Below, one piece after another: positions 5,765 through 46,624 of a stretch of DNA of 46,624 bases. The translations under genes and the position numbers were made by a program. This DNA is from a virus. The stretch lies in IMG/VR virus record IMGVR_UViG_3300010371_000014, positions 1-46,624 of that record; one strand, 5' to 3'. The notes below the pieces were generated by a model. It was not told the DNA's origin. It saw only the letters and a list, made by a program, of their open reading frames with translations, and ran no database searches. The first letter of the stretch is position 1, and each line of letters opens with the position of its first letter.

Positions 5765-5985
5765 GCGAAGTGCATTTCCTTCTGCTGTACGCGAAGGTTG
5801 ATTTCGTTGATGAGATCGATTGGCAAGTTCAACCACGTGCCGGTGCGGTGCACCTCGCCATCTTCGATCTCTTTGATGTCCTCGACGTTGCGTGCGATGA
5901 TGCACTGACTCGGCATGAGAATCTTCTCTGCCATGTATCTGCGTGCCTGCTCATAGTTGCCGGCGAGGATGATGTGCTTCTTCAT
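5761..5985 (-). CDS. Hypothetical protein, 74 aa.
   Basis: A compact ORF with protein-like composition (MKKHIILAGNYEQARRYMAEK...). It is translationally coupled to the polymerase and lies 2 nt after the upstream gene. Confidence 0.55.
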   Translation of the reverse strand: MKKHIILAGNYEQARRYMAEKILMPSQCIIARNVEDIKEIEDGEVHRTGTWLNLPIDLINEINLRVQQKEMHFA

Positions 5986-5987
5986 GG

Positions 5988-6713: not shown

Positions 6714-6715
6714 GA

Positions 6716-11077: not shown

Positions 11078-11083
11078 GTCGGA

Positions 11084-11827: not shown

Positions 11828-11830
11828 GCG

Positions 11831-12583: not shown

Positions 12584-12825
12584 GCGCTTACCGGAGGGGA
12601 TTGCCAGTCCTCAGCAAGAATATCCGTCTGTGATGCGAGCCAGGGCACTCGAGCACCTGGCGTATTCTGCACATCCATTGGATATTCCATGTACAGATAC
12701 GGCAGCGTCATTTTGCTGTTTGCATCCGGTACCTGAAGGCGAACAAGTAGTCCTTTTCCATTCCATCCTGAGCGCTGAATCGCGCTCCCTTCTTTGGCCA
12801 TGGCCAACGCTTGTCCGAAGTTCAC
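12580..12825 (-). CDS. DUF2829 / Tad2-like small protein, 81 aa.
   Basis: MNFGQALAMAKEGSAIQRSGWNGKG at the N-terminus and PWLASQTDILAEDW at the C-terminus match the hallmark blocks of DUF2829 as I recall them. It has 4-nt overlaps on both sides. Confidence 0.7.
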   Translation of the reverse strand: MNFGQALAMAKEGSAIQRSGWNGKGLLVRLQVPDANSKMTLPYLYMEYPMDVQNTPGARVPWLASQTDILAEDWQSPPVSA

Positions 12826-28450: not shown

Positions 28451-29153
28451 TCCAGTGAAGGACCCCGCCGCCGATCCCTCCAAGGCGGGCGATCCTCCAG
28501 CACCTGATCCGAAGAAGGTTGATCCGCCGGCAGCTGATCCGAAGAAGCCTGAGCCGATGGTGCTGACCGATGAACTGAAGAAGCAGTTGACCGACGCAGC
28601 CATCGCCGACTACCAGAGGGCGAATGGACCGCCGGAGAACTACGAACTGAAGGGGCCGAATGGCACAGAACTTCCCAAGGATTTTGTGGAGCGGACGACG
28701 GCCATTGCGCGCGCGTCGGGGCTGACACAGAAACAGGCGGAGGCTGTCGTGCCGTTCATTCAGCAGGAAGTCGCGGCTCGCATGCAGCAAGTCGCCGACG
28801 ACAACAAGCCTGGTGAAGGTTCAGCATGGAAGGCGCGCGATGCTGAATGGCGGAAGCAAGCGCTGGCCGCGCCGGACGTCAACGGATCGCAGGAAAAGTT
28901 GCTCGCCAAGGCCGAGACCGGTCGTCGCGTGCTGACACATCTGCGAACGGTTGACCCGACGACAGCCGAGTTGGAAAAGTTCCTCGATGAGACGGGGTTC
29001 GGCTCGCATCCCGCCGTCGTCAACTTCATGGCGACTGTCGGCAAGCTGATGAAGGAAGCTGACTTCATCCCGCCGCCGGCACCGCCGGGGAACAAAGATG
29101 GGAAGCGCGTCGAAGATCGTCTCTTTCCCTCAACCGCAAAGAAGGAGTCGTAA
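28443..29153 (+). CDS. Scaffolding protein, 236 aa.
   Basis: It lies between the portal and major capsid genes. AAGGAG at 28427-28432 precedes the ATG at 28443. The N-terminus is Pro/Asp/Lys-rich with repeats (DPxK), followed by long charged helices. Confidence 0.55.
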   Translation: MPNPVKDPAADPSKAGDPPAPDPKKVDPPAADPKKPEPMVLTDELKKQLTDAAIADYQRANGPPENYELKGPNGTELPKDFVERTTAIARASGLTQKQAEAVVPFIQQEVAARMQQVADDNKPGEGSAWKARDAEWRKQALAAPDVNGSQEKLLAKAETGRRVLTHLRTVDPTTAELEKFLDETGFGSHPAVVNFMATVGKLMKEADFIPPPAPPGNKDGKRVEDRLFPSTAKKES

Positions 29154-29157
29154 CATC

Positions 29158-30306
29158 ATGCGAACTGCTCTTCGCACACACGGTCGAACGATCGTGTCGC
29201 TGTGCCTGGCGTTCCTGGCACTGGCCATCACGGGGCCGGTGCTCACCGCGCTGGGCTTGATGCATGCAGTGGCCGTCGGCAGCCCGTCTGTGGCGCTCGG
29301 CGGTGTGGTCGGCGCCAGCGTGCTGACGCTGGTCGACTGGGCCAAGCGTCTGGAACCTGAAGGCGGCGTCACCACGGATATCGTGGAGATGCTCTCCATT
29401 ACCAACGAAGTCCTGCTCGACATGCTCTGGCTCGAGGGCAATCTGCCCACTGGCCATCGCACGACGCTTCGCACCGGTCTGCCGGCGGTCTACTTCCGTC
29501 TGCTCAACCAGGGCGTCCAGCCATCGAAGTCCACCACCGCGCAGATCGACGAAGCGACCGCCAAGCTGGAAGCGTGGTCGGAAGTCGACAAGGCGCTGGC
29601 TGATCTGTCCGGCGACGTCAACGCCTTCCGCTTCTCGGAAGCGCTGGCGTTCATCGAAGCGATGAACCAGCAGATGGCGACCTCGCTGTTCTACGGCAAC
29701 TCGGGCACCGCACCGGAGCAGTTCACCGGCCTGGCGCCACGCTATGCCGCGATCAGCGGCGCGACCAACAAGCAGAACGTGCTTGATGCCGGCGGACGCG
29801 CGAACGTCAACTCGTCCATCTGGCTCGTGCTCTGGGGACGCAATACGTTCCACGGTATCTTCCCCAAGGGCACGCAGGCCGGTCTGCAGCATCACGACCA
29901 CGGTGAGGAAACCGCGGAGACGTCGGCCACCATCGGCGGCACACGTCTGCGTGTGTATCGCGATCAGTTCATCTGGGATGCTGGCGTGTGCCTGCGCGAC
30001 TGGCGCTACGTGGTTCGCATCGCCAACATCGACACCACGAACCTCGTGGCCGAAGCGTCGGCGGCGAACATCATCAAGTTCATGATCAAGGCGCTGCACA
30101 AGGTCCCGACCTTCGGGCTCGGCCGTGCGGTGCTCTACATGAACCGCACGCTCTTCGAATGTCTGGACATCCAGCGCTTTGAGGCAGTGCAGACCGGCGG
30201 GCAGCTGCGGTACGCCGAGGTCGACGGTATCATGACGCCGATGTTTCGTGGAGTTCCGATTCGCCGCAGCGATGCGCTGCTAAACACCGAAGCCACCGTT
30301 TCGTAA
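29158..30306 (+). CDS. Major capsid protein (HK97-fold expected), 382 aa, with an unusual hydrophobic N-terminal extension.
   Basis: GAAGGAG lies 10 nt upstream of the ATG at 29158. The conserved-looking blocks are LEGNLPTGHRTTLRTGLPAVYFRLLNQGVQPSKS and FRFSEALAFIEAMNQQMATSLFYGN. It follows the scaffold gene. Confidence 0.7.
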   Translation: MRTALRTHGRTIVSLCLAFLALAITGPVLTALGLMHAVAVGSPSVALGGVVGASVLTLVDWAKRLEPEGGVTTDIVEMLSITNEVLLDMLWLEGNLPTGHRTTLRTGLPAVYFRLLNQGVQPSKSTTAQIDEATAKLEAWSEVDKALADLSGDVNAFRFSEALAFIEAMNQQMATSLFYGNSGTAPEQFTGLAPRYAAISGATNKQNVLDAGGRANVNSSIWLVLWGRNTFHGIFPKGTQAGLQHHDHGEETAETSATIGGTRLRVYRDQFIWDAGVCLRDWRYVVRIANIDTTNLVAEASAANIIKFMIKALHKVPTFGLGRAVLYMNRTLFECLDIQRFEAVQTGGQLRYAEVDGIMTPMFRGVPIRRSDALLNTEATVS

Positions 30307-31620: not shown

Positions 31621-32646
31621 ATGCCGTCGACCAAGCGATTGTTCTACAGCAACAACCTGGGGAGCAACGTGCGTTTTGCACGGGCGCTACCAGGATCGTA
31701 TGCTGCGCTCGGTGGTATCAGTAGCTTCACTCGACCCGATGGTGCGACGCCCATCGCTACATCGTTTGACGCCAACGGTGTACTACAAACGATCGCACAG
31801 AATGTGCTGCGCGATGCACATTATATCGGAGGGCGACGCACGATCCTGCTTGAAGAGAGTCGGCTCAATAACTACCTGCACTCTGAGCAGCTCGATAGTG
31901 CTCCGTGGGTAACGAGTAATGCTTCGGTTACTGCCAACGCGGCTGCGGCTCCTGATGGAAATGCGACGGCAGATGCATTGATTGAAGCTGCTACGAACTC
32001 GTCACACAACATTTCGCAGATCATTCTGAACACTGCATGGACCGATAACACGGCGCAATCTTTCTCAGTATTCGTCAAAGCCGGTGCACGCTCATGGGTG
32101 TTGATCAGCGTGCGCAGCAAGGCGGCAGTTTTCAGCTCAGTGTATTTCAACACCACCACTGGCACATTTGGAACAGTCACAGCAAGTTGCACTGCAACCG
32201 CCACACCTATCGGTAATGGATGGTACTGGCTGCGGATCACATTGAACTCATCACAGTCTGGCGCGACGCAGCCCAACTGGTTTCTCGCTTGGACGACAGG
32301 CAATAATACATCGAGTTTTCTTGGTGACGGTGTGAGTGGTGGACTATTCTGGGGAGCTGATGCTGAGCACAATAAGGCGTTCGCCACGAGTTATATTTCA
32401 ACCGCTGCGTTGACTGTGACGCGCGCTGTTGATGCACTCACGCTGGTGGGATCACCGATCGTCGGTACGTTGTTTTACCACTACTGGGATCTGGCCACGT
32501 CGGCCTGGGCAAGTGCTGTCGCAGCCTACGCCGGCAATGCGGCTATCACGCCACCAGTCAATCGTGCGTACGACTGCATTGCAGTGGTGCAAGGCACACG
32601 AACAGCAGCACAGTGCAAGACGATTCTCGGAGGCAGCTTGCCATGA
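31621..32646 (+). CDS. Fibre / carbohydrate-binding (ConA-like lectin-type) protein, 341 aa.
   Basis: I set the start at ATG 31621, 2 nt after the previous stop. The pattern is typical of phage fibre lectin domains: APDGNATADALIE...FSVFVKAG...GNGWYWLRI...LFWGADAEHNKAFATSYIST. GC is visibly lower (about 45-53% in the lines I counted). Confidence 0.5.
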   Translation: MPSTKRLFYSNNLGSNVRFARALPGSYAALGGISSFTRPDGATPIATSFDANGVLQTIAQNVLRDAHYIGGRRTILLEESRLNNYLHSEQLDSAPWVTSNASVTANAAAAPDGNATADALIEAATNSSHNISQIILNTAWTDNTAQSFSVFVKAGARSWVLISVRSKAAVFSSVYFNTTTGTFGTVTASCTATATPIGNGWYWLRITLNSSQSGATQPNWFLAWTTGNNTSSFLGDGVSGGLFWGADAEHNKAFATSYISTAALTVTRAVDALTLVGSPIVGTLFYHYWDLATSAWASAVAAYAGNAAITPPVNRAYDCIAVVQGTRTAAQCKTILGGSLP

Positions 32647-33305
32647 CCGATCCCGGTGGTCCGATTCACATCTTCAACCTCGCGTTGTCACATCTGATGA
32701 TCGGGGTGGAAGTGCAGACATGGAGTGATCCATCGAAAGAAGCGGCGACGCTGCGTCGCTACTACCCGACCGCACGTCGCAAAGTGCTGCGTGACTTCCC
32801 ATGGCCATTTGCCACGAAGATCGTGCCGCTCGCTCTGGTGAGCGGATCGCCAACAGCGCCGGCAAGCACCGAGTACACGTATGCGTATCGTACACCGCAG
32901 GACAATCTCCGTCTTGTGCGGATCTTGAGCGGCTTGCGACAAGACTCTGTTCGGACGCGCGTCGTGTATCGCGAACTGAGCGATGACGAAGGTCCGCTTA
33001 TCTACACTGATTTCCCGCCGCAGCTGGCGCAAACGATTCCGGCGGTGTTGCCGCAGCTGCCGCAGCTCGAGTACATCTGGGATAACAACAATCATGCGAC
33101 GTTCAAGCCAGACTTCGAGCTCGCCTTGTCGTTCTATCTGGCGTTTCTCGCTGCACCTCGGTTGACGAAAGCTGACCCAACGAAACTCGGCGATCGTGCG
33201 TTCACACTGTACACGAAGCAGATTGAAGAGGCGCGCGATAACACCATGAATGAGCAGCAGCCTGATCCGCCGCAGGAATCGTCATTTGTGCAGGTGCGCG
33301 AATGA
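32643..33305 (+). CDS. Tail tubular protein A / adaptor (T7 gp11-like), 220 aa.
   Basis: ATGA overlap with the upstream stop. FNLALSHLMIGVEVQTW...EAATLRRYYPTARRKVLRDFPWPFA resembles the N-terminal block of gp11-type proteins. It lies directly before a gp12-sized gene. Confidence 0.5.
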   Translation: MTDPGGPIHIFNLALSHLMIGVEVQTWSDPSKEAATLRRYYPTARRKVLRDFPWPFATKIVPLALVSGSPTAPASTEYTYAYRTPQDNLRLVRILSGLRQDSVRTRVVYRELSDDEGPLIYTDFPPQLAQTIPAVLPQLPQLEYIWDNNNHATFKPDFELALSFYLAFLAAPRLTKADPTKLGDRAFTLYTKQIEEARDNTMNEQQPDPPQESSFVQVRE

Positions 33306-35917
33306 CGCAGGTGCTGCCAAACAATGCCACGCAGCGGTCACAAGCCGCTGGTGAGTTGTCGCCTGAGATGTACGGGCACACTGATCAGGAGAAATACGAA
33401 TCCGGATTGCGTATCTGTCGCAACACCATTGTCCTCCGACAGGGCGTGACCAGCAATCGTCCCGGTCTGGAGTTTGTTGCCAGTGCCAAGGATCAAGCAA
33501 CAGCAGTGCGATTGTTGAAGTTTGAGTTCAGTAGCAAGGATGCGCTGGTGATGGAGTTCGGCAATCTCTACGTGCGCTTTTACAAGTTCGGTGCTCAGGT
33601 GGTAGCTACAGGTGTCGCGCCGTACAGCACGTTGGTGAACTACGTCCCCGGCGACATGGTCACGCAAGGGTTCGGTCTCGGTGAAGTCACCTACGTCTGC
33701 TTGCAGCCGAGCGGCCCAGCTGATCTGGTGTCGCCGCCATTCCCCGGCTATTGGTATCCGCTCGTTGACGCCATCTACGAAGTTGGTACACCGTACACGA
33801 CGGCTGACCTCGCTGGACTCAACATTGCGCAGTCTGCTGATGCGGTGACGATCGTGCATTCGCTATACCCACCAGCGCAGCTCAAGCGATTCGGCGACAC
33901 CAACTGGCAGTACAGTGTGATTGCTTTTGGACCGTCGATTGCGACTCCCACGGGGATCAATGTCACAGGAACGGTGGATCTGACTGGACATCTCTATCAG
34001 TACGGCGTGACGGCGATCGATGCAGTGACTGGAGAGGAATCGTACGTTGATGCCTCAGGTGAACAGGCACTCAAGGACCCGTCACTCACCGATCCACAAA
34101 CCATTACGTGGACCGCCGTAGCTGGGGCTGGATCGTACAACGTCTATATCGGCATCGATAAGTCAGCACTCTTCTTTCTGAGCGCAGCACCTGGGAATAC
34201 GTTTATCAACGCTGGTGCTGTCACACTCGACAACACGCGCACACCGCCTGTTGATCCGCAAGTGTTCATCGGTGCCGGTAACTACCCGAGTGTGGCAGGA
34301 TTTTATCAGCAGCGGCAGATGTTCGCCAACAGTCTCAATCAGCCCAATCGCATTTGGGGGTCACGGACAGGACGATTCAACAACTTCTCGATCAGTTCAC
34401 CGATTCAAGAAGATGATGCCGTAATCTTCGACCTTGTCTCTAGTACGCTGGATACGGTGCAGCAACTGATCGATCTCGGACGACTGCTCGTCGCCACTGA
34501 CGGTGCAGAGTGGCTGGCCGATGGCGACACACAGAACATTCTCTCGCCAACAGCGATCAACGCACGTGTGGGCAGCTACAATGGCAGCGCACCGCTACGC
34601 ACGCTGAAGGTGGATTTCAATATTCTCTATGTGCAGTCGCTTGGCACGACGATTCGCAAGCTGACGGCGAACATTCTCTATGGCTACTACACATTTGCAG
34701 GTGAGGATCTCACGCTTTTTTCGTCACACCTCTTTGAGGGTTTCCAGGTCAGCGATTGGGACTGGGCACAGCAGCCGAACTACACCGTGTGGGCAGTGCG
34801 TTCAGATGGCACGCTGCTCGGCCTGACGTTCTTGCCAGAGCAGAAGCTGCAAGCGTGGCATCGACACGACACACTCAATGGCGCTTTTGAAAGCGTCGCC
34901 GTCATCCCAGAGAACGGCGTGAACGCCGTCTATCTGGCCGTCCGTCGCACGATCAACGGACAGACTGTACGCTACATTGAACGCATGTCGTCGCGGCTGG
35001 TGCTGGATACCCTGCGTGATCCAAAGTTCATGGATGCCAGTCTCTCATTTGACGGCACGAATCTCACCGGCGATACGCTGACGATCAGTGGTGGCGTGCC
35101 TGATACGCCGGCAGTTCCATTCATTCCCGGCTCAGGGAGTACACCACCGCAGCTCGTGTTGCCGGCGCAGTCGGGATGGGGACAGGGTGTACTGCTCACG
35201 CTGACTTCGAGTGGCGGATTCTTCACGGCGCAGATGGTGGGTGATGCGTTCTTCATCACTGGCCCGACGCTAGGTGAGCTCGTTCGTTTCACGGTAGCCA
35301 CGTATGTGAGCGCCACGGCCGTACAAGGATACGTTGATATCGATGTGCCACTCGATATGCAGAATGTGGCGCTCACCACGTGGGCGCATGCTGTGGCAGC
35401 TGTTGGCGGTTTGCAACATCTTGAGGGACAGCAGGTCGCGATCTACGCAGATGGCGCAGTGGTCGGGAGTCCAAATAATCCTGACTACACCGTGTACACC
35501 GTCACGAACGGGGTTGTGACGCTCGACAAGCCCCGTGCGATCATTTGCGTGGGACTGCCGTATCTGTCGGACGTTGAAACACTTGACATCGATATGCCGC
35601 ATAGTACCTCAGCGAAGTCGCAGCGGATGAACGTCTCGGCCGTCGGACTGCTCGTCAGGGCATCGCGTGGGATTTTCATCGGCGGCCGTGAGCCGGTGAC
35701 GAGCACCACTGATGGTCTTGTGGAGATGAAACTTCGTGACACTGAAGAAATGGGATTGGCACACGGCGAACCCGTCAGTCCGGTCTCTCGGTACATCGAA
35801 CAGTCCATCGAATCCGAATGGAATAGCAATGGTCGTGTTTTTATCCGACAGGTTGATCCGGTGCCACTCACTCTGTTGTCCATCTCAGCACTGGGGAATG
35901 TCCCCACGGGAGCCTAA
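33302..35917 (+). CDS. Tail tubular protein B / nozzle (T7 gp12-like), 871 aa.
   Basis: The size, the position after the gp11-like gene and the beta-rich composition fit. It has an ATGA overlap with the upstream gene. Confidence 0.5.
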   Translation: MTQVLPNNATQRSQAAGELSPEMYGHTDQEKYESGLRICRNTIVLRQGVTSNRPGLEFVASAKDQATAVRLLKFEFSSKDALVMEFGNLYVRFYKFGAQVVATGVAPYSTLVNYVPGDMVTQGFGLGEVTYVCLQPSGPADLVSPPFPGYWYPLVDAIYEVGTPYTTADLAGLNIAQSADAVTIVHSLYPPAQLKRFGDTNWQYSVIAFGPSIATPTGINVTGTVDLTGHLYQYGVTAIDAVTGEESYVDASGEQALKDPSLTDPQTITWTAVAGAGSYNVYIGIDKSALFFLSAAPGNTFINAGAVTLDNTRTPPVDPQVFIGAGNYPSVAGFYQQRQMFANSLNQPNRIWGSRTGRFNNFSISSPIQEDDAVIFDLVSSTLDTVQQLIDLGRLLVATDGAEWLADGDTQNILSPTAINARVGSYNGSAPLRTLKVDFNILYVQSLGTTIRKLTANILYGYYTFAGEDLTLFSSHLFEGFQVSDWDWAQQPNYTVWAVRSDGTLLGLTFLPEQKLQAWHRHDTLNGAFESVAVIPENGVNAVYLAVRRTINGQTVRYIERMSSRLVLDTLRDPKFMDASLSFDGTNLTGDTLTISGGVPDTPAVPFIPGSGSTPPQLVLPAQSGWGQGVLLTLTSSGGFFTAQMVGDAFFITGPTLGELVRFTVATYVSATAVQGYVDIDVPLDMQNVALTTWAHAVAAVGGLQHLEGQQVAIYADGAVVGSPNNPDYTVYTVTNGVVTLDKPRAIICVGLPYLSDVETLDIDMPHSTSAKSQRMNVSAVGLLVRASRGIFIGGREPVTSTTDGLVEMKLRDTEEMGLAHGEPVSPVSRYIEQSIESEWNSNGRVFIRQVDPVPLTLLSISALGNVPTGA

Positions 35918-35920
35918 GCG

Positions 35921-36475
35921 ATGAGCGCCACAGCTTCACTGATGCTCACTGGTGCTCGCGCTACCGATGTGGCGATCGGGCAGTTCAGTCAAGCGACTGC
36001 CGCGAATGCACGCGGGACTTATCAGAAAGCACAGTACGATCGGAATGCCACGATCGCGGCCACCGAGGCAACGCAAGCGATCGCCGAAGGTGACGTTGCA
36101 GCAGGACAGCGTCGTGCGGCAGGACGCGAAGAGCTCGGCGCTGATCGTGCATCGTACGGTGCACAGGGCGTGAGCGTTGATTCAGGAAGCGCCGTTGACG
36201 TGCAAGCGAACACGGCGCGTTTCAGTGCCTTGGATGCCATGACCATTCGGAATAATGCTGCGCGGAAGGCATGGGGCTACAATGTTGAAGCGCAGAACGA
36301 CACAGAGCAGGGGATTCTCGCCAAGCTCGGCGGTGAGAACACGGCTGAGGGGCTCCGGTCGCAAGCAGCTGGCACATTGCTCACCGGTGCATCGGAGATG
36401 TACAGCCTCTACACTGATCAGCGCAAGAAGCAGCCGCTTTCACCGGGGCGGATGACCGGCGGGAGGACACAGTAA
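35921..36475 (+). CDS. Internal virion (ejected core) protein A-like, 184 aa.
   Basis: It lies after the tail tube genes. DRASYGAQGVSVDSGSAVDVQANTARFSALDAMTIRNNAARKAWGY matches a block I recall from small internal core proteins of podoviruses. Confidence 0.4.
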   Translation: MSATASLMLTGARATDVAIGQFSQATAANARGTYQKAQYDRNATIAATEATQAIAEGDVAAGQRRAAGREELGADRASYGAQGVSVDSGSAVDVQANTARFSALDAMTIRNNAARKAWGYNVEAQNDTEQGILAKLGGENTAEGLRSQAAGTLLTGASEMYSLYTDQRKKQPLSPGRMTGGRTQ

Positions 36476-38196
36476 TGCCAATGTCAACCGCGCCGACACC
36501 AAAGGGTCCCAGCGAGGGACTGGCACCTCTGCCTGGTCCGCGCATCTCGACTGACGCACCGATTGAAGCCTTTGGTGGTGGACGTGCTGACCGGACGATC
36601 GACGTCAGTGGCATGCAACGTGCGATGGTTGATCTGTATCAGCGCGAGCATGCGAATGCCACCGAAGTAGCCATCAATGATGCTGACAATCAGCTCCAAG
36701 GGTTGTCGACGAAACTGCTCTACGATCCTGATCAGGGTGCGCTGAATAAGATGGGGAAGGATGCGTTTAGTACGCCGGAGAAGGTGCAAGAGGGCTGGCA
36801 GAAAGGCGTCAGTGATATTGCCGCGTCACTCGGCACACCGGAGCAGCAGGAGCTCTTTCAGCATCGCGCACAGGCGCGCTGGCAGTCGGTCAACGCTGAG
36901 GTGCAGCGCCATGTTGGTGAGCAGAAGAAAGTGTACGAAGCGCAGACCACGCAAGACTTCATCAAGAACCGACAGGACGATGCGCTCCACGCGGTCACAC
37001 CGCAGGGCTTGGACGAACCGAAGGTCGATCAGTCGATCGCCGAGCAGCAGGCAGTCATCGCCGATCACGGCCGTCGCAACGGCTGGTCGGATGAGATGAT
37101 CAAGGCCGAGACGGCCAAGCAAGTGAGCACAACGTATAGTCACGTGATCAACTCACTCTTGGATGGTGAACAGGACATTGCTGCGAAAACATTCTACGAC
37201 AAGCATCAAGACCAGCTCCAAGGCGCTGAAGCCTTGCAGGTGGGCAAGGCGGTCAAAGAAGGATCGTCGCGGGGCGAGTCACAGCAGCAGTTTGATCGCA
37301 TCATGTCAAAGCCGGATATCGATGAACCAGCGGCAGTCAAGGCGGCACGCGACATCGATGATCCGCGTGTCCGTGACTTGACTGAACAGCGCGTGCGACA
37401 GGAGTTCACCGAACGCCGGCAAGCGGCCACGGCGGCACGCGAGCAGAATCTGCAGAACGTGGCCGACTTCATTGATCAGACTGGCGGCAAGAAAGATCCA
37501 CCGCCGTCGATGTGGTCAGGACTGACCGGCGCTGAGCGGGTCGAAGTCGCAAAGTGGCGGCAGCAGAAGATCGACGGTGTGAAGCCCACGACCAACTGGA
37601 CGTACTTCTACGATCAGATGCAGCTGGCGTCCAGCGATGCCGGCCGTGAGCAGTTCCTGCATGAACCACTCCTGGCGCATCGCAGTGAGCTCGCTGATCC
37701 GCAGTTCGAGAAGCTGACGGACTTGCAAGCGAGCCTTCGGAAGGGCGAAGACAAGAGCGACGACCTGGCGGGCTACCGGACATCGACAGGCATCGTGCAC
37801 GATGCACTCACCGCAGCTGGCATCAATCCGAATGCCAAGGCTGGATCTGATGATGCGACCGCCGTCGCGTTGTTCCATAGTGAAGTCGATGCGCAGATTG
37901 AGCAGTTCAAGCAGGATAAGGAACGACCCGCTGGCCCGAAGGACGTACAAGACATCGTGGACAAGTTGATGCTCAAGAGCACGATTCCAGGCAGCGGATT
38001 CAACTTCCTTGGCCACACGTTCAATCAGCGTCGGGGCTCGCTCTTCGAGCAGCAGGTCACGAAACTCAACGAGATTCCGGCTGCTGAGCTTCTACAGATC
38101 AAGGCCGCACTCCGTGCATACAATCGTCCGACGACCGAAGCGAACATCATTAGCACTTATCAACTGGGGCACATGAAGCCACAGGCGAAGCCATGA
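36475..38196 (+). CDS. Internal virion (ejected core) protein B-like, 573 aa.
   Basis: TAATG junction with the upstream gene. The sequence is helical and charged. It sits between the small and giant core proteins, as with T7 gp15. Confidence 0.4.
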   Translation: MPMSTAPTPKGPSEGLAPLPGPRISTDAPIEAFGGGRADRTIDVSGMQRAMVDLYQREHANATEVAINDADNQLQGLSTKLLYDPDQGALNKMGKDAFSTPEKVQEGWQKGVSDIAASLGTPEQQELFQHRAQARWQSVNAEVQRHVGEQKKVYEAQTTQDFIKNRQDDALHAVTPQGLDEPKVDQSIAEQQAVIADHGRRNGWSDEMIKAETAKQVSTTYSHVINSLLDGEQDIAAKTFYDKHQDQLQGAEALQVGKAVKEGSSRGESQQQFDRIMSKPDIDEPAAVKAARDIDDPRVRDLTEQRVRQEFTERRQAATAAREQNLQNVADFIDQTGGKKDPPPSMWSGLTGAERVEVAKWRQQKIDGVKPTTNWTYFYDQMQLASSDAGREQFLHEPLLAHRSELADPQFEKLTDLQASLRKGEDKSDDLAGYRTSTGIVHDALTAAGINPNAKAGSDDATAVALFHSEVDAQIEQFKQDKERPAGPKDVQDIVDKLMLKSTIPGSGFNFLGHTFNQRRGSLFEQQVTKLNEIPAAELLQIKAALRAYNRPTTEANIISTYQLGHMKPQAKP

Positions 38197-41100
38197 CCGG
38201 TCCCGCTGTTCCACTGACCGCACCGCCGAACTACACCGAACTCCTCGGTGAGCAGACGCCGACGGCACCCAAGGACGACAATCCGTACTTGGATGTCCTC
38301 AAACAGCAGACACAACAGAGCGGACAGCAGATCAAGCAGTCGGTCGCCGTGGCCTCGCAGCGCGGCACACCCGAGCGGTGGGCCAAAGTCTTGGAGATGT
38401 CGCAGAAGACCAAGCTGCCAACTGACGTCGTTGATCGCAACTACGACGAACTCACAGCAGCCGATGATCGCAATAGTCTCGATCACAATGATATCGCACA
38501 CGAAACGCCTGCGGTCGGACAATGGTTACACGATCCGGATAACGCGACACTCGGCCGTCGTGAGATTCCAGCACTCCAGTCGATTGAACGCGGTGTCCGA
38601 CAGTTGCAGCCGCCTGACCTCACGCCGGCACATCAGAGTGGGATGCTCTCAGCGCTCGGTGCGAGCGTCAATGATACGCATGCGACCGCGTGGCAGCTCG
38701 GGGCGGTCTTCGGCTTGACGGATCCTGCCACGGCGGCTGGACAGATCGCTGAGGCCAACCGTCGATCCAAGGCGATCGCGGCCAACGCACCAGACTACGC
38801 CAAGGAGTTCCAAGCTGCCATGGCGCAACACGCTGGCGATGTCAATGCGGCATTCCGCAGCTTCACCGATGCTAGCGCGGCGTTGCGTCGGCGTGACATC
38901 TTGAGTGCCCTACAGCAGTACGGCACTGGTGCTGTCAAGACGGTGGGCGAAGCGCTGGATATGGCGGGCGCGGCAGCTACACGCGGACGAGGGCTGACCT
39001 ACTCGCTCCTGCAGGGACTCGGCTCGATGCTCCCAGTCCTCGAGGGGACCACGATAGGCACGGGCACAGGTGCAGCACTTGGTTCAGTGGTCCCCGTGCT
39101 TGGCACAGCAGTTGGCGGTTTCGTTGGCGGTGTCGTTGGCACGTTCGGTGGCATGTTGCCCGTGTCTGTAGGACAAGCGATCAGTGACGAGTTCAAGAAG
39201 CGTGGCATCGATCCGACAGATGAAGTGGCCTTGCAGAAAGCGCTGTCCGATCCTACCCTTATGGCGTCGCTGCGATCGACGGCGTTGAAGAAAGGATTGA
39301 CGGTTGCCGGCGTGACATCGCTCTTTGCAGCATTCGCTGGCGCGGCATCAGCCGCCGCTCGCGGTGCTGGCACGGTTACGCGGGCTGCGGCCGCAGCGAC
39401 TGACGTTGGGGTACAAGCAGCGGGGCAAGGCGTCGCACAGCTCGCAGGGGGCAAGGTAGCAGGCGAGAAAGCCGATCCGGGCGCAGCGTTGAGCACAGCG
39501 ATCAGCATGCTGGGCTTCGGTGTCGCAGAAGGAGCCCTCGGCGCAGGACGGCGTGGCCTCTTCCACGCTGATCCGGTCGAAGCAGCCGAGGAAGTGCACA
39601 AGGCCACTGATGATGCACTGACCTCAGTGAAGAATGCACAGGTGCTGCAGGAAGTCGGGAAGGCGATTGAAGAAGCGCCGACCACAGCGGCAGCTCCCGA
39701 TCGTCTCAAGCAGCTCATCGAGACAGCGTCCGGTGGGAAGGATGCGTCGCACGTCTACTTTCAGGACGAAGCGTGGGACAAATACTGGACCGGTCAGGGC
39801 GCATCGCCTGCCAAGGCGGCGGCTGATATCATGGGGGACGGCGGGAAGGCGTATGATCGTGCGAAGGCCACGGGTGCCCCGCTCGCGATTCCCATGGGCG
39901 ACTACATGGCGAAGGTCGGTCCTGATCCCGAACATTGGGCTGGGTTGCTGCAAGATGCGCGGACTGTCATCGATGGCCCATCGCTGAAAGAAGCGCAAGA
40001 GCATCTCGAGGCGCTGCCGGCCACGATGAGCGCACTCGCCAAGGAAGCGCAGGGTGTCACTGAGGAACCGGCTGGTGAGCCACTGACGATCAAGCAGCAG
40101 GTGGCCGAGCAGCTCCAAGGCGCTGGCATGTCGGCCATGGAAGCGAAGCCAAATGCACAGATTCTCGAATCGGTCTTCAAGACGTTGGGCGAACGGGCTG
40201 GCATTGATCCCAATGAGCTGTATAAGCGGTATGGGCTGACAGTTGATCGTGGCGAGCAATCTGTCGAAGGACAAGGACTAGAACAGCGTGGTCATCAACC
40301 GCGACTGGTATCTGATGATCTCCATCGTCTTGCTATACATCTTGAGGAACTTTCGAGAACTGCGGAAGAAGAACCGAAGGCTTCACAAGAGGCACTGGAA
40401 GACGCTGCCACACTCCGAGACATGGCTAGACTCGTTGAAGGAGGAGCTTCTCGCGAGGATATCAATAAAGAAATGGGAAAACGGGGTATTGATATTGATC
40501 ATCCGCTTTCTGACCTATTGAAGGACCCAGAGAAAGGTGCTCCTATCTTTGTCAAGTGGATGCGCGGTGCTGATATCCTTGGTGCGCAACGATCAACGTT
40601 CAATCAGGGCGGACCGGCCATCCCGCTTCCTGAGGGGATGTACTCCAAGGCCGAGCGCGTCATCAATGAGAAGATGGGCGGCAAAGCGAAACCGAGTGAG
40701 ATTCGGAAGATGCTCACGAACGCTGGTATCAAGGCAGATGAACTAGAGTGGACAGGACTTAGGTCTTTTCTCGACGAGCGCCTGCCTGATGAGGCTGAGT
40801 CAAAAGAAGCTGTGCTCCAGCATCTGCAAGCGCATCGGTTGGATGTTCTCGAAGTGCAGAATGATGCGAAAGGCGGCGCGACATTTGATGAGCATGCTGT
40901 GCAAGAGTATATGGACGAGCGTATGCAAGAAGATGCACGTGCTATGGCAGAAGAAGTCATGGAAGGTGCACGTCTTCGCCCGCATCTACAGATTGTTGAA
41001 GGTGAAAATGGGCTGTGGGAAATACAAGGTCCAAAAGGTGAGAATCTGTACTATGGTGGCAAGAACGAGCCCATTCCAGATTTGGACAATAACACCTACG

Positions 41101-44100
41101 GATCGGTAGCCTCGGCACTCGAAAACTATTTCATAGAGTCGTTTGACGAATCTGAGTACCGTGACATGGCGATGGATGAAGTCGGGATGCCAACCGAGGA
41201 AGGTGAAGGACAGTACGAGAACTATACGATGCCAGGTGGTACGAACTACCGTGAGCAGCTCTTCACGCTGCCGAACATCGGTGGGCGGGGCTTCGCCGAA
41301 GGACATTTCCAAGAACCCAACGTCTTCGCGCATCTGCGGATGAAAGATCGGCTGGATGCCGAGGGACGGAAGATGCTCTTTGCTGAAGAGGTGCAAAGCG
41401 ACTGGCATCAGCAGGGACGTGATCGGGGCTACGATGAAGAAACACCGAAGCAGAAAGAAGAGCGTGATGCAAAGCGTGAGGATCTCCGCCAACAGCGCGA
41501 ACACATCATTGACCAGAAACAGGCTATCACGAACTCAGCTGAGTTCGAACGCCTGACTTCAACAGGTGATCTTTCGTCGATTGAGGAAGAAGATCTCGCA
41601 GTCATGACGAAGAAGATCGAAGCCTTGAACGCTCAGCACAACGAGGTCAACAACCAGCTGAATCGTCTGTCCGATAACTATGGTCGGAAAGTACCAGAAG
41701 CGCCATTCAAGAAGAACTGGCATGAGTTCGTGATGAAGCGGATGCTGCAGTACGCCGTGCAGCATGGCTACGACGCGATTGGCTGGACGAAGGGCGACAC
41801 GCAGAACGATCGGTACTCGCTGGAGAAGACAATCAAGGCAATAAGTGTTCATCACGATTTTGAAGGCAAGTTTGCCATCGAAGCTATGCAGCACGGACAT
41901 GTGTATGATCAGCACATCGGTTCGTACACAGCCGAAGAACTGCCCGGCGTCGTTGGAAAAGAAATGGCGCAGAAGATCATCGACGATAGAGCACTCAAAG
42001 AAACCGGTGCTACAACTTTTCACGGGCTCGAGCTGAAGACCGGCGGCGAAGGGATGCGCGGCTTCTACGATAAGATCCTGCCCGACTACCTGAATAAGCT
42101 CGGCAAGAAATACGGAGCGAAGGTCGAAGAAACGACGACACCAGTTGCCGGATTCAACGAAGTCGACAACGAAGACGAAGCACGTCTCATGGAGCAGGAG
42201 TTCGGTCGCAAAGCGACACGCGAACCTGAGCGACGGGAACCGGTCCACGAGATGGTGATCACACCCGAGCTCCGGGCACAGGTCAAGAACATCGGCTTCG
42301 AGCTCTTTCAGGCGGCGCGCGGGCGCATCACGTTCGGCGACGGACAGCACTTCAACATCAGCTTGCTCGAAGGCGCGGATCGTTCCACTTTTATCCACGA
42401 AACGGGGCATCTCTACACGCAGGTCATGCAGGACTTGGCGAAGGAGACGCCCGCGATCGCACAGGACTACCAAGTCTTGCGTGATTGGGTCGGGGCGCAG
42501 GGTGATGCAGCGTTGAGTCGCGAGCAGCATGAGCAGATCGCACGCGGCTTTGAAGCGTACATCATGGAAGGCAAAGCACCGAGCACGGCGCTGCGCTCGG
42601 CATTCTTCCGCTTCAAGCAGTGGCTCACGCAGATCTACCACGAGCTCAGCGGGCTGGGCGTGCAGCTCACACCGGCGGTCCGCGGCGTTTTCGATCGGCT
42701 CATCGCGAGTGATCAGGAAATAGCCAAGGCCGAGCATGCAGCTGATGTCACACCGCTCTTCGGCGACAATCCGAAAGCGGTCGGCATGAATGACGAGGAC
42801 CAGGCGAAGTACGCCACGGCGGTCGCTGATGCGCATCAAGCGGCCGAGGAGCAGCTGAGCCAGCGCCTCATCAAGGACATGCGGCGCGAAGAGTCGCGGC
42901 AGTGGAAGCAGTGGAGCGGGCCGGTCCGTGAACAGGTGACAAAGGAGGTTGAGGCAAATCCGACCTATCAAGTCCTCGACTACTTGACGAAGGGCGTCAC
43001 ACCGCCCGATCGCGCAGTGCCCGCCGGATTGAAGCTGAGCAAGGCCGCACTCGTCGGTGCCTACGGCAAGGACATTCTCAACGGCCTCCCGCGTGACGCG
43101 ATCACGACGACGGGCGGTGTTCATCCTGATATCGTCGCTGAGCTCTTCGGCTTCCAGTCGGGCCGTGAGATGGTCGATGCCATGCGCGCCGCGCCAGACA
43201 AGGAGGCGCTCATCGCACAGCGCACCAATCAGCAGGTGCAGGCCGAGCACGGCGCACGGATGACGCCCGAGGAGGTCGAGCAGCAAGCGCAAGCCGCTGT
43301 CCGTGGCAACGACAAGCGCGTGCAACTCCTGCGGAAGGAACTCGACATCCTGGCACAGCAGCACATGCCGGCGGTCAAGGGGATGCTCAAGGCGCTGACC
43401 AAAACGGTGCCGCCTGAAGAGGTGATCGCAGAGCAAGCCGCGAAGACCGTTGGCGCACAGACCGTCGGTGACATTCGGCCGTACGACTACGACCTCGCCG
43501 CCAAGCGGAATGCCAAGGCCGCACGTGAAGCGTTCCTGGCGGGCGACGTTGATCAGGCGTTCCAACTGAAGCGGAAAGAGCTGCTGTCCACGGCGCTGTT
43601 CAATGAAGCGACCGCTGCCCGAGCTGAAGTTGAGAAGGCCATCGATGGCTTCACGAAAGTCTTCGGCCGTGACGATACATTGTCGAATCATCGTGACATG
43701 GACTTGGTCAATGCGGCACGCTCTGTCCTGGCACGGGTCGGCCTCGGCCACGCGGATGCACCGCCAGAGGCGCATCTTGAGCAGATGCAGAAGTACGACC
43801 CGGAAACGTATCATGCCGTGCAGGAGCTCCTCGGCGAGTTGCCCACCGCTGACGGTGACTACAAGAGCCTGCCGCTCGATACATTCCGACAAGTGAAGGC
43901 AACAGTCGACGCGCTCTGGTCGCTCTCGCGACGCACGCAGCAGTTTGAAGTCGCTGGCAAGATCATGGATCGCGAGTTCGTCCGTGGCCAGTTGATGGAA
44001 CGCGCGCTCGCCTTGCGCACACCCGAGCAGCTGGCGACGTTCAAGCGCACGCCCGGACAGTGGGATCGTACGAAGCTGCGACTGCTCGGCGGTGAAGCAG

Positions 44101-46124
44101 CCCTGCGGCGCATGGAGTCGTGGGCTGATGCCGCAGATAACCTTGATCCCAATGGCGTCTTCAAGAAGTATCTCTACCAGCCGATCAGCGATGGTGCCAC
44201 GCAGCTCCGCAAAGCGTATGCTAGCACCATGCGTGAGTACGCAGGGTTGGTCAAGACGTTGCACGGCGAAGATCTCCGGCAGAGCGTGCCAGCACCGGAG
44301 TTGACAGACAGTCGCACGAACCAGCCGTTTGAGTTCCGTAGTAAGAAGGAGCTGCTCGGCGCATTGTGGCACACCGGCAACGACAGCAATCTCCGCAAGC
44401 TGCTCCTTGGACGTGGCTGGGGAACGGTCGACGACGAAGGTGTGCTTGATCGGTCCAAGTGGGATGCGTTCGTGCATCGGGCGGAACAGCAGGGGATCAT
44501 TACTCAACAGGACTGGGAGTACGTGCACGGCGTGTGGCAAGTGTTCGAGACGCTGAAACCGGCCGCACAGCGGGCGCACAAAGAAATGTTCGGACACTAC
44601 TTCAACGAAATCACGGCACAGCCGTTCACCACGTCACTCGGCGAGCATCCTGGCGGATACGTCCCGGCGATCGTTGACCGCGCTGAAGTGCCTGAAGGGA
44701 TCGCCGTCAGGCCGGTCGAGGCACTTGACCACGGGTTCATGTTTCCGCAGCGTGCGACGACAGGGCGGAGCTTCACCTACGCGCGCAATGAAGCGTTTAC
44801 GAAGCCACTGATCATGAATCCTGATATGTTCGGTTCACACGTCGATGCTGTCCTGCGCTTCACGCATCTCGAGCCACGTGTGCGCGATGTGCAGCGCGTG
44901 ACACTGGATCGCGGTGTGCGGGCAGCGATCAGTGCCTTCGATCCCGTCGCGAACGAAATGATCCACTCCTTCTTGGATCGCTCGGCACGGCAGATCATTG
45001 AAACGCCAGGCAGCAATAAGTTCGCCGACGGGGTCTGGCGCTTCATGCGCAACAATGCGGCGACGCAAGTGCTGTCTGGCAACGTCGTCACGCCGATCCT
45101 CATGCTCTCGCACTTCTCCGGCGGCATGATCAAGTCGAGCCCAGGCGCCTTTGCCAAGGGGCTCTGGGCGTTCACGCGCAGCCCAAAGGAGTTCGTCGAC
45201 GATATCCACGACGTCTCGGATTTTATGGCGACACGCTCCAACGCGGGGATGATCGAGATCCAGAAGTCGATCGACAACGTGATGCTCACGCCAGGCAAGT
45301 TCAAACAGGCGGGTGACTGGCTGCGAGAGCACGGCACCTTCCTGATGCACGCCGTCCAGCATGTCTCTGACCACGTGACCTGGTCGAGCGTGTACGATAC
45401 GCGCACAGCCGATGGTGCTTCGCACGAGGAGGCGGTACGGGATGCCGATAGCGCCGTCCGGCTCACGCAGGGATCATTTAGTCCCGAAGATCTCTCAAAG
45501 TTCGAAGCCGGCACGCCAATGGTGCGTGCGATGAGCACGTTCTACAGCTTCTTCAATGCCAAGGCGAATCTGATGAAGACAGAGTTTCAAGGCACCGCGC
45601 GGTCGATGGGGCTGCAGGCTGGTGCCGGAAAGCTCTTCTACATCTACGCGCTCGGCTACATGATTCCGTCCGTCATGGCGGGGATCACGCGGCAAGCGGC
45701 GAGCGGCAACAAGTTCAAGCAGGACGATGAAAGCCTCGTGCATGCTGCATTGAAACTCTTCTTTGAAAGTCAACTGGAGATGGGCACGCGAGCAGTGCCA
45801 GGGGCACAAGTCGGACAGGCCGCGTACGACATGTTCGCCAAGAAGGGTGATAGCAGCGACGAGGTCGCCGCTGCACCAGTCATCAAGGAGATTGAAGCGA
45901 TGGTGCGCGTACCGCATGATGTCTATCAAGGCATCCACGATAAACTCACGGCGCGTGCTACGCGCGACATTCTCACGACGCTGGGACTCTTCACACGACT
46001 CCCGCTGACGACTGTCGGGAAGGCACTAGGTTACCACACGGATATCACAGTAGGACACGCACAACCGACGTCAGCGATGGATCAACTGCGGGGACTCTTA
46101 ACCGGCAACGCCGGAGGACGCTAA
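38193..46124 (+). CDS. Giant internal virion / ejected protein, 2643 aa (gp16-position), with Gly-rich membrane segments, an HExxH motif and polyvalent-protein-like central domains.
   Basis: One uninterrupted ORF with an ATGA overlap upstream. The hydrophobic Gly/Ala/Val stretches are GTGTGAALGSVVPVLGTAVGGFVGGVVGTFGGMLPV and VAGVTSLFAAFAGAASAAA. FIHETGHLY has its HETGH at 42396-42410 (aa 1402-1406). Central blocks include QSDWHQQGRDRGY, WHEFVMKRMLQYAVQHGYDAIGWTKGD and GMRGFYDKILPDYLNKLGKKYG. Confidence 0.8.
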   Translation: MTGPAVPLTAPPNYTELLGEQTPTAPKDDNPYLDVLKQQTQQSGQQIKQSVAVASQRGTPERWAKVLEMSQKTKLPTDVVDRNYDELTAADDRNSLDHNDIAHETPAVGQWLHDPDNATLGRREIPALQSIERGVRQLQPPDLTPAHQSGMLSALGASVNDTHATAWQLGAVFGLTDPATAAGQIAEANRRSKAIAANAPDYAKEFQAAMAQHAGDVNAAFRSFTDASAALRRRDILSALQQYGTGAVKTVGEALDMAGAAATRGRGLTYSLLQGLGSMLPVLEGTTIGTGTGAALGSVVPVLGTAVGGFVGGVVGTFGGMLPVSVGQAISDEFKKRGIDPTDEVALQKALSDPTLMASLRSTALKKGLTVAGVTSLFAAFAGAASAAARGAGTVTRAAAAATDVGVQAAGQGVAQLAGGKVAGEKADPGAALSTAISMLGFGVAEGALGAGRRGLFHADPVEAAEEVHKATDDALTSVKNAQVLQEVGKAIEEAPTTAAAPDRLKQLIETASGGKDASHVYFQDEAWDKYWTGQGASPAKAAADIMGDGGKAYDRAKATGAPLAIPMGDYMAKVGPDPEHWAGLLQDARTVIDGPSLKEAQEHLEALPATMSALAKEAQGVTEEPAGEPLTIKQQVAEQLQGAGMSAMEAKPNAQILESVFKTLGERAGIDPNELYKRYGLTVDRGEQSVEGQGLEQRGHQPRLVSDDLHRLAIHLEELSRTAEEEPKASQEALEDAATLRDMARLVEGGASREDINKEMGKRGIDIDHPLSDLLKDPEKGAPIFVKWMRGADILGAQRSTFNQGGPAIPLPEGMYSKAERVINEKMGGKAKPSEIRKMLTNAGIKADELEWTGLRSFLDERLPDEAESKEAVLQHLQAHRLDVLEVQNDAKGGATFDEHAVQEYMDERMQEDARAMAEEVMEGARLRPHLQIVEGENGLWEIQGPKGENLYYGGKNEPIPDLDNNTYGSVASALENYFIESFDESEYRDMAMDEVGMPTEEGEGQYENYTMPGGTNYREQLFTLPNIGGRGFAEGHFQEPNVFAHLRMKDRLDAEGRKMLFAEEVQSDWHQQGRDRGYDEETPKQKEERDAKREDLRQQREHIIDQKQAITNSAEFERLTSTGDLSSIEEEDLAVMTKKIEALNAQHNEVNNQLNRLSDNYGRKVPEAPFKKNWHEFVMKRMLQYAVQHGYDAIGWTKGDTQNDRYSLEKTIKAISVHHDFEGKFAIEAMQHGHVYDQHIGSYTAEELPGVVGKEMAQKIIDDRALKETGATTFHGLELKTGGEGMRGFYDKILPDYLNKLGKKYGAKVEETTTPVAGFNEVDNEDEARLMEQEFGRKATREPERREPVHEMVITPELRAQVKNIGFELFQAARGRITFGDGQHFNISLLEGADRSTFIHETGHLYTQVMQDLAKETPAIAQDYQVLRDWVGAQGDAALSREQHEQIARGFEAYIMEGKAPSTALRSAFFRFKQWLTQIYHELSGLGVQLTPAVRGVFDRLIASDQEIAKAEHAADVTPLFGDNPKAVGMNDEDQAKYATAVADAHQAAEEQLSQRLIKDMRREESRQWKQWSGPVREQVTKEVEANPTYQVLDYLTKGVTPPDRAVPAGLKLSKAALVGAYGKDILNGLPRDAITTTGGVHPDIVAELFGFQSGREMVDAMRAAPDKEALIAQRTNQQVQAEHGARMTPEEVEQQAQAAVRGNDKRVQLLRKELDILAQQHMPAVKGMLKALTKTVPPEEVIAEQAAKTVGAQTVGDIRPYDYDLAAKRNAKAAREAFLAGDVDQAFQLKRKELLSTALFNEATAARAEVEKAIDGFTKVFGRDDTLSNHRDMDLVNAARSVLARVGLGHADAPPEAHLEQMQKYDPETYHAVQELLGELPTADGDYKSLPLDTFRQVKATVDALWSLSRRTQQFEVAGKIMDREFVRGQLMERALALRTPEQLATFKRTPGQWDRTKLRLLGGEAALRRMESWADAADNLDPNGVFKKYLYQPISDGATQLRKAYASTMREYAGLVKTLHGEDLRQSVPAPELTDSRTNQPFEFRSKKELLGALWHTGNDSNLRKLLLGRGWGTVDDEGVLDRSKWDAFVHRAEQQGIITQQDWEYVHGVWQVFETLKPAAQRAHKEMFGHYFNEITAQPFTTSLGEHPGGYVPAIVDRAEVPEGIAVRPVEALDHGFMFPQRATTGRSFTYARNEAFTKPLIMNPDMFGSHVDAVLRFTHLEPRVRDVQRVTLDRGVRAAISAFDPVANEMIHSFLDRSARQIIETPGSNKFADGVWRFMRNNAATQVLSGNVVTPILMLSHFSGGMIKSSPGAFAKGLWAFTRSPKEFVDDIHDVSDFMATRSNAGMIEIQKSIDNVMLTPGKFKQAGDWLREHGTFLMHAVQHVSDHVTWSSVYDTRTADGASHEEAVRDADSAVRLTQGSFSPEDLSKFEAGTPMVRAMSTFYSFFNAKANLMKTEFQGTARSMGLQAGAGKLFYIYALGYMIPSVMAGITRQAASGNKFKQDDESLVHAALKLFFESQLEMGTRAVPGAQVGQAAYDMFAKKGDSSDEVAAAPVIKEIEAMVRVPHDVYQGIHDKLTARATRDILTTLGLFTRLPLTTVGKALGYHTDITVGHAQPTSAMDQLRGLLTGNAGGR

Positions 46125-46125
46125 C

Positions 46126-46624
46126 ATGACGGTGCTTTCCACCAACATCCGGAGTTCGTACGTCGGCCCAGGTGCAGGGCCATTCGCTTTCAGTTTTCGG
46201 CTCATCGCCGGCACTGACCTCGAGGTCACGCTCTTCCAGGCGGCGACGGGAGCCGTGATCCGACTCAACTGGATCACAGATTTCACCTTTGCTGCGAATA
46301 GCATCGGCAATCGGCTGGGTGGGAGCATCACGCTCAACACGGCGCTGGCGGCAGGCGACAAGATCGTGCTGCGTCGCGCACCTGCTACGTTGCAGTTGAC
46401 CGACGTGGCAAATCAGGGCGAGCAGTATCCGAGCACGCTGGAAGCGGCGTTCGACTACGCCATGATGGTGAATCAGCGACAGGACGATGATCTTGGACGG
46501 TCGTTGCAAGTACCTGTCTCAGCTGATCCCAGCCTCTTCGAAAGTATCATCAGTTCGTTCTTGCCGAACTATTATCTGCGCGTGCGTAGCGATGGACTCG
46601 GGGTCGAAGGTGTCACGAACGTCA
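46126..46624 (+). CDS. Tailspike N-terminal part (T7 gp17-like tail-attachment domain). It continues at position 3 of the window.
   Basis: The ATG at 46126 lies 1 nt after the giant gene's TAA. There is no stop before the window end, and the frame matches 3..1370 through the repeat. YVGPGAGPFAFSF...KIVLRRAPATLQLTD...LEAAFDYAMMVNQRQDDDLGRSL fits the N-terminal adaptor domain of podovirus fibres and spikes. Confidence 0.75.
   Translation, partial: MTVLSTNIRSSYVGPGAGPFAFSFRLIAGTDLEVTLFQAATGAVIRLNWITDFTFAANSIGNRLGGSITLNTALAAGDKIVLRRAPATLQLTDVANQGEQYPSTLEAAFDYAMMVNQRQDDDLGRSLQVPVSADPSLFESIISSFLPNYYLRVRSDGLGVEGVTNV
46502..46624. repeat. Right copy of the exact 123-bp terminal direct repeat (identical to 1-123).
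   Basis: See the left copy. Identity runs to the last base of the window. Confidence 0.95.

Follow-up and report, generated by a model that had tools for sequence, protein, structure and literature searches.

Domains that are bound for the cytoplasm, among them the virion RNA polymerase of N4 and the H66 methylase, are carried by internal virion proteins (IVPs), which include the IVP-D class of T7 gp16. Published profile work ties the epsilon15/BPP-1 group to the T7 IVP-D, and within that group BPP-1 Bbp10 is listed as an IVP-D homologue (Hardies et al., 2016, PMC4819975, Table 2). Polyvalent proteins have been defined in phages, and their metallopeptidase domains have been proposed to process them (Iyer et al., 2017, PMC5512222). 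A virion-borne giant with LPD domains has also been described: gp47 of phage phi24B (2811 aa; LPD5, LPD1, LPD38 and MuF_C) was found in virions by proteomics and proposed to be an ejection protein (preprint 10.64898/2026.04.10.717836). Here we analyse the viral record IMGVR_UViG_3300010371_000014, whose whole 46,624-nt stretch we call the window, and in particular a 2643-aa protein encoded in it, which we call the giant. To these earlier findings the giant adds the scale and the layout of a family. We judge it fairly probable that the giant is an IVP-D ejection protein in polyvalent form, belonging to an epsilon15/BPP-1-type podophage and equipped with a cis-acting HExxH metallopeptidase.

The giant is encoded on the plus strand (as are the genes of its structural operon placed below) by an open reading frame (ORF) that runs from an ATG at 38193 to a stop codon ending at 46124 and takes up 17.0% of the window. 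This ATG and the stop codon of the preceding gene share the sequence ATGA, and an identical protein is encoded on a 46,642-bp metagenome contig. The locus is an epsilon15/BPP-1-type podophage structural operon: the genes for tail tube A, tail tube B, an IVP-B-like protein, a gp15-position protein, the giant and a tail spike follow one another in an order common to BPP-1 and UFJF_PfDIW6. An initial annotation, made from the letters of the DNA without database searches, had placed the giant at the position of the largest internal core protein (gp16) of T7-like tails and called it a gp16-type injection protein. The position matches the order of the structural operon, and the assignment to the gp16/IVP-D type of ejection proteins is supported by gene position together with the homology of the C-terminal half to Bbp10.

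The C-terminal 1270 residues are homologous to BPP-1 Bbp10 (tblastn E=5e-80; hmmsearch 1150 bits), and tblastn with the C-terminal units matches Bbp10 along with giants of Pseudomonas phage AF, of phage CP2 and of Caulobacter, Vibrio and Limnohabitans podophages. The Bbp10 group (with Pseudomonas AF, UFJF_PfDIW6 gp16, Xanthomonas CP2 / PhiXacm4-11 gp35, Caulobacter SR18 and OANV1 gp16) occupies the same gene position and is homologous to the giant over residues ~1371-2643, the HExxH domain included. All of its members are giants of 2039-2986 aa (Bbp10 2052 aa, UFJF_PfDIW6 gp16 2039 aa, OANV1 gp16 2986 aa and PhiXacm4-11 gp35 2300 aa). PhiXacm4-11 gp35 is discussed in the literature as a gp16 analogue without significant similarity to PDB entries, and the class III proteins of that phage were mostly detected in virions, with gp35 not named there. 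The two proteins part company upstream, in that the N-terminal ~770 residues of Bbp10 have no BLAST-level match to the giant, and no match to its central AB module, described below, is found in Bbp10.

T7 gp16 and the giant are alike in being encoded downstream of tail tube B and of two internal proteins of smaller size, in being large and in their expected membrane-active segments. The two differ in that T7 gp16 (1318 aa) has an N-terminal lytic transglycosylase, whereas no muralytic Pfam domain of this kind is matched by the giant; the transglycosylase domain is known to vary among IVP-Ds (PMC4819975). The initial annotation's description of the giant as about twice the usual size holds against T7 gp16 but not against its own family, where 29 of 100 full-length relatives exceed 2643 aa. 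A conserved HExxH motif in T7 gp16 itself was considered and rejected, as its single HERLH varies among T7-like phages.

The family is very large and mostly unannotated. When the HExxH domain of the giant is used in an exhaustive HMMER search, no fewer than 12,000 cluster representatives match at E<=1e-3, of which 6200 reach E<=1e-30, and this domain is still without a Pfam model. The best 145 matches of the search are nearly all giants, of 1900-3833 aa. In the 100 full-length relatives, total length ranges from 1955 to 3208 aa (median 2393). The HExxH domain lies at an almost fixed 1219-1336 aa from the C-terminus (median 1274), while what separates it from the N-terminal conserved region can be as short as 29 aa or as long as 1334 aa. 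The family thus consists of two constant end regions with one variable slot between them. The constant N-terminal region comprises an LPD22 domain, Gly-rich hydrophobic helices and a conserved part reaching to residue ~700-800; the constant C-terminal ~1270 residues open with the HExxH domain. Since the HExxH domain is fixed at ~1270 aa from the C-terminus, right after a slot of 29-1334 aa, the release of cargo by a protease becomes directly testable, and the slot itself could serve as a place to harvest new injected effectors or to insert engineered cargo.

Slot contents in relatives include ART-PolyVal, PBECR3 nuclease, LPD3, RadC/JAB and DUF7178 domains. These relatives, together with an LPD22 match above the gathering threshold in the giant itself, bear out the link to polyvalent proteins drawn by the initial annotation. 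The giant itself contains no effector domain of known biochemistry (ART, nuclease, methylase and the like) detectable with Pfam or NCBIfam. A comparable arrangement is found in the N4 gp50 virion RNA polymerase, an IVP-D homologue in which an HExxH metallopeptidase and then a C-terminal body come after a cytoplasm-destined cargo (PMC4819975, PMC5512222). There the cargo is an RNA polymerase, and the spacing between HExxH and the Glu-helix is 78 aa, against 40 aa in the giant.

Local comparison with database relatives splits the single polypeptide into LPD22, a hydrophobic region, an N-terminal conserved region, the AB module, the HExxH domain and a C-terminal body, with five separable conserved units among these. 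Two of these, AB and the HExxH domain with its LPD1-like half (HExxH-LPD1), are under-described. The HExxH domain covers residues 1373-1560 (42309-42872) in the family alignment and is among the constant elements that family members share. Its motif, H1402-E1403-T-G-H1406 (42396-42410), is the sole HExxH of the giant and lies within FIHETGHLY, which starts at residue 1400; EQIARGFEAYIMEGKAPS at residue 1447 and FFRFKQWL at residue 1471, quoted with it in the initial annotation, are likewise present. The motif is 100% conserved in 164 sequences, in which H1402, E1403, H1406, E1447, E1454, P1463 and Y1482 are all invariant, and the domain is 43-63% identical across relatives. HExxH is therefore not a chance motif.

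The AlphaFold2 (AF2) model of the domain has a predicted confidence (pLDDT) of 85, with a core above 90. It orders the elements as a beta-hairpin, the HExxH helix (residues 1397-1415), a short helix, a helix bearing E1447 and E1454 (residues 1443-1459) and long helices, with the hairpin, the HExxH helix and the Glu-helix at pLDDT 85-97. An HExxH followed by a downstream Glu is the gluzincin motif logic described for the metallopeptidases of polyvalent proteins (PMC5512222). Short motifs of the domain, sT.iHE..H and ExxAxG[FL], also have look-alikes in the metallopeptidase region of N4 gp50. The HExxH domain is thus a probable zincin, though not a proven one. The assignment goes no further than this because no peptidase profile and no solved zincin structure matched, and the zincin named in the initial annotation therefore stands on motif conservation and predicted topology.

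The second half of the HExxH domain, a Glu-helix region at residues ~1445-1507 (42525-42713) that holds the invariant E1447, E1454, P1463 and Y1482, resembles LPD1. When compared by hhalign with the Pfam LPD1 region of the family of VT2-Sakai orf71 it gives Prob 66% (P=5.5e-5), and the HExxH of the giant aligns colinearly with HEWFH in orf71. In orf71 (20067-28487 in L165), LPD1 occupies residues 1374-1453 (E=1e-23), 77 aa after HEWFH, so that the whole unit spans residues 1297-1453. Pfam LPD1 (PF18796) hits in members of the giant family are sub-threshold (E=0.06-0.19). From these alignments, LPD1 may be the half that bears the Glu-helix in an HExxH metalloenzyme domain, so far not recognised as such. 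Orf71 and its homologue gp47 of the Stx phage phi24B are podophage polyvalent giants of 2806-2811 aa (LPD5-LPD1-MuF_C-LPD38) whose HEWFH-LPD1 unit is colinear in alignment with the HExxH domain of the giant, but they belong to another tail homology group (F116) and have other LPD content. Hhalign detects no similarity to orf71 outside the HEWFH-LPD1 unit, the C-terminal half being not significant, and a PDB sequence search with the orf71-type unit finds no match.

We further note that LPD1 of orf71 contains an E..AR.FE.Y helix like that of the HExxH domain of the giant. In a 3208-aa relative (P0224), residues 1698-2120 hold an orf71-type HEWFH-LPD1 unit directly before the family's own HExxH domain. 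As both kinds of unit stand in tandem in this protein, they represent paralogous types.

The slot of the giant is filled by the AB module (residues 805-1376, 40605-42320), in which A covers residues ~815-1000 and B residues ~1005-1376. It holds the blocks QSDWHQQGRDRGY (residue 1068), HGYDAIGWTKGD (residue 1191) and GMRGFYDKILPDYLNKLG (residue 1287), which begin QSDWHQ..., HGYDAIGW... and GMRGFYD..., respectively. The initial annotation had quoted these blocks alongside HExxH as parts of one central region; all three are present, but they lie outside the HExxH region, in this separate module of 570 aa. AB is absent from the closest relatives of the giant (P0001-P0007) and stands directly before the HExxH domain, as in the giant, in 35 of the 145 giant relatives. 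We therefore reject the idea that it is an insertion unique to the window phage. A relative with AB (P0187, 41% identical in AB and 45-59% in the constant regions) and one without it (P0001) are about equally related to the giant in their constant regions. AB or the HExxH domain also occurs in very large plasmid-encoded proteins whose annotation names LPD23.

AB has more than 196 homologues, and its alignment shows 28 invariant columns in which E, R, D, Q and K are frequent, E1021, R1049, E1066, D1070, K1173, R1207 and D1293 being among them; its AF2 model reaches a pLDDT of 85.6. Because so many of its invariant residues are polar, AB is probably an enzyme. In BFVD it matches only proteins, uncharacterised or labelled LPD/ART-PolyVal, from uncultured phages, and among PHROGs it aligns only with the central part of phrog_7348, a family of giants labelled 'endolysin'. 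Hhalign finds nothing when AB is compared with orf71, N4 gp50, T7 gp15 and gp16, epsilon15 gp13-17, Bbp10 or the T7 and epsilon15 IVP-A. A GNAT-like fold, suggested by recurrent weak Foldseek fragments (E=0.2-1), was not accepted. AB is a large phage domain, widespread and confidently folding, that has invariant polar residues but lacks any known relative, which makes it a reasonable biochemical target.

Stand-alone AB proteins are of two kinds, one with B at the N-terminus followed by ART-PolyVal, ASCH, GNAT or LPD39, and the other with A and B at the C-terminus. In two of the three genomic contexts read, the stand-alone gene directly follows a P22-type portal gene, whose stop it overlaps, in a P22-like head module (10001-12001 in L152; 8952-11825 in L153); in the third it follows a large-terminase gene and an unannotated 857-aa ORF. 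This portal-adjacent position suggests that AB may be a module packaged in the capsid. The position and the C-terminal effector fusions are also common to carriers of the MuF / SPP1 gp7 type (architecture in PMC5512222). AB differs from these carriers in being embedded, in the giant, in an IVP-D and not standing alone, and no Pfam match to MuF (Phage_Mu_F, MuF_C) is found for AB or for the stand-alone AB proteins.

These comparisons suggest how the giant might work. A few copies would be packaged above the portal, in the core of the capsid, and pass out through the tail when the phage infects. The N-terminal hydrophobic helices and the two internal proteins encoded upstream would jointly help to form a conduit across the envelope. 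The slot module and the HExxH domain would then enter the cytoplasm with the DNA. As a gluzincin-like metallopeptidase, the domain would bind metal through H1402 and H1406, with E1447 or E1454 as third ligand and E1403 as catalytic base. Its most likely task would be processing in cis, either to release or activate the slot module or to mature the giant, and an attack on host proteins would be less likely; the cis role is favoured because the domain is constant and lies directly C-terminal to the slot. A bolder proposal, which we hold only tentatively and regard as doubtful in its full extent, is that HExxH-LPD1 is a self-processing zincin that marks a universal cargo slot in the IVP-Ds of thousands of podophages and frees the upstream insert in the infected cell, that AB is a new and widespread family of injected enzymes, located in the slot or next to the portal, and that LPD1 is an unrecognised half of a metallopeptidase.

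Several results weigh against the reading of the giant as an IVP-D with a cis-acting metallopeptidase. Hhalign of the giant's C-terminal half against the T7 gp16 family gives Prob 4.9% over 87 columns, and against the epsilon15 gp17 family 1.7%; as these profile-profile tests are not significant, the connection with T7 gp16 depends on gene order and on earlier published work (PMC4819975). The whole giant has no sequence relative in the PDB, and AB is without an assignable fold or activity, having no match in Pfam, in PDB sequences searched with the AB profile or in PDB folds searched with Foldseek. For the HExxH segment of the giant, Pfam gives no match at E<=10, and in 17 family members the best peptidase matches are Peptidase_M78 (E=0.11) and Peptidase_Mx (E=0.19), each in one of the 17. 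No PDB sequence relative is found with the HExxH profile, and Foldseek with the HExxH model against the PDB yields nothing at E<=0.001; the best match (E=0.27) is a helical bundle, and no peptidase or zincin appears among the top 50. Lastly, hhalign against the metallopeptidase regions of N4-like gp50 gives Prob 2.4%. NCBIfam likewise returns no peptidase match for the giant, and PHROG searches with the HExxH family return nothing annotated.

The absence of any zincin profile or structure match despite a confident model also speaks for an alternative without a zincin. In it, HExxH...E would be the metal-binding or another hydrolytic site in a fold that is not a peptidase, or else a zinc site with a structural task, steadying the packed or ejected form. 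We consider this alternative unlikely. It would agree with the match of the second half to LPD1, a domain of unknown function, and for the model, which has only a two-strand hairpin before the HExxH helix where a canonical zincin has three strands and an N-terminal helix. A helix and a strand just upstream (residues ~1347-1372) fall in another model, the junction having been modelled in two pieces. Against a non-peptidase site stand the gluzincin signature formed by HExxH and the invariant Glu on a later helix, the motifs like those of the N4 gp50 metallopeptidase region, and the complete invariance of the HExxH Glu, which is hard to square with a purely structural role.

The initial annotation had proposed that the HExxH domain is one of several polyvalent effectors, an injected protease directed at the host in pre-early takeover or anti-defence. 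Such a role would agree with a conserved motif that looks catalytic and with the predicted delivery of the giant along with the DNA, and host targets are allowed for some metallopeptidase domains (Iyer et al., 2017, PMC5512222). However, the domain is fixed in position and present in essentially every member, whereas true effectors vary; its 43-63% identity across relatives is unlike the rapid turnover of a conflict effector; and it is always joined to the C-terminal structural body. A host-directed effector protease is thus quite improbable, and the domain is to be counted with what is constant in the family, not with its variable effectors. Overall the initial annotation is partly supported: the class of the protein was right, the zincin is unproven, and the status of a variable effector and the exceptional size were wrong.

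Murein peptidases mostly have LAS, M23 or M15 folds, not those of HExxH gluzincins, which counts against a peptidoglycan metallopeptidase that would open the murein for the ejection conduit. This last alternative, proposed for phi24B gp47 (preprint 10.64898/2026.04.10.717836) and in keeping with the lack of any detected virion-associated muralytic domain in the giant's structural operon, where the gp15-position protein is without the transglycosylase domain of bbp11, is very improbable, since no murein-peptidase family in Pfam matches and BPP-1 and UFJF_PfDIW6 carry the same HExxH domain alongside the bbp11 SLT domain and a gp15 annotated as endolysin, respectively, so that the HExxH domain is no substitute for a transglycosylase.

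Returning to the remaining units of the giant, LPD22 lies at residues 50-138 (38340-38606; Pfam PF18834, E=2.2e-10, 41.1 bits against a cut-off of 28.6) and is also N-terminal in P0001-P0005, P0147, P0179 and P0211. Gly/Ala/Val-rich hydrophobic segments, located by a Kyte-Doolittle scan and by uncharged runs, follow at residues 285-327, 368-389 and 431-449 (39045-39539) and are candidate membrane-inserting helices. The initial annotation had reported such runs in both the N-terminal and the C-terminal thirds; those of the N-terminal third are confirmed, but the C-terminal third has only one clear segment, at residues 2481-2499 (45633-45689). The hydrophobic stretches show weak PHROG matches to those of tape-measure and tail-lysin proteins. 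The conserved N-terminal region (residues ~470-800, 39600-40592) aligns in P0001-P0007 to residue ~690-770 and is found in 123 of the 145 giant relatives. The conserved C-terminal ~1080 residues form an IVP-D-like body (residues 1561-2643, 42873-46121), with phrog_9880 matching at E=0 over residues 1370-2639. When Pfam, NCBIfam and PHROGs were searched with the whole giant and with six pieces of it, LPD22 and the unnamed phrog_9880 were the only matches. A 1012-aa ORF on the minus strand (41559-44597) was rejected as a gene; it is a codon-aligned reverse frame, a by-product left without stops because TTA, CTA and TCA are absent from the sense gene between codons 1123 and 2148.

In the structural operon, the portal gene (26193-28112; phrog_332), whose product is ~44% identical to portals of epsilon15/phiV10-type phages, is followed by those for a protease-like protein and the major capsid protein (29098-30303). 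Tail tube A (tail tubular A, 32613-33302) and tail tube B (tail tubular B, 33302-35914) are followed by the IVP-B-like internal virion protein (35921-36475; phrog_418, E=1.3e-28), with BLAST matches to epsilon15 gp14 (E=2e-17) and bbp12. The gp15-position internal protein of 573 aa (36475-38196; phrog_10475) is homologous to bbp11, epsilon15 gp15 and UFJF gp15, and a PDB search with it gives no match. Its PHROG label is 'endolysin', yet we reject it as a transglycosylase: its BLAST alignment to bbp11 omits residues 270-511 of the latter, and the SLT domain of bbp11 spans residues 315-433.

Downstream of the giant, the tail-spike gene starts with an ATG at 46126, two bases past the stop of the giant and preceded by a GGAGGA motif. 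Its ORF runs off the end of the window (46126-46624) and resumes in frame at the window start, continuing over 1-1370 if the molecule is circular; the joined ends give an ORF of 622 aa, with tail-spike PHROG matches for the part at 3-1367. Because this ORF stays in frame across the two ends, the window looks like a complete, circularly permuted genome. A DNA-level search of a phage collection found no similar phage.

Upstream of the portal gene no full-length large terminase (TerL) ORF is seen, and the terminase may be split, divergent or mis-started. The sole large-terminase match is a 379-aa ORF with a TTG start (23456-24595), which weakly matches the C-terminal part of the phrog_2 profile (E=2e-13). 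No phage RNA polymerase was matched among the window ORFs scanned. The left arm (3878-15367), on the minus strand, encodes a DNA polymerase A, a DNA methyltransferase (6716-7804), a primase/helicase and a helicase.

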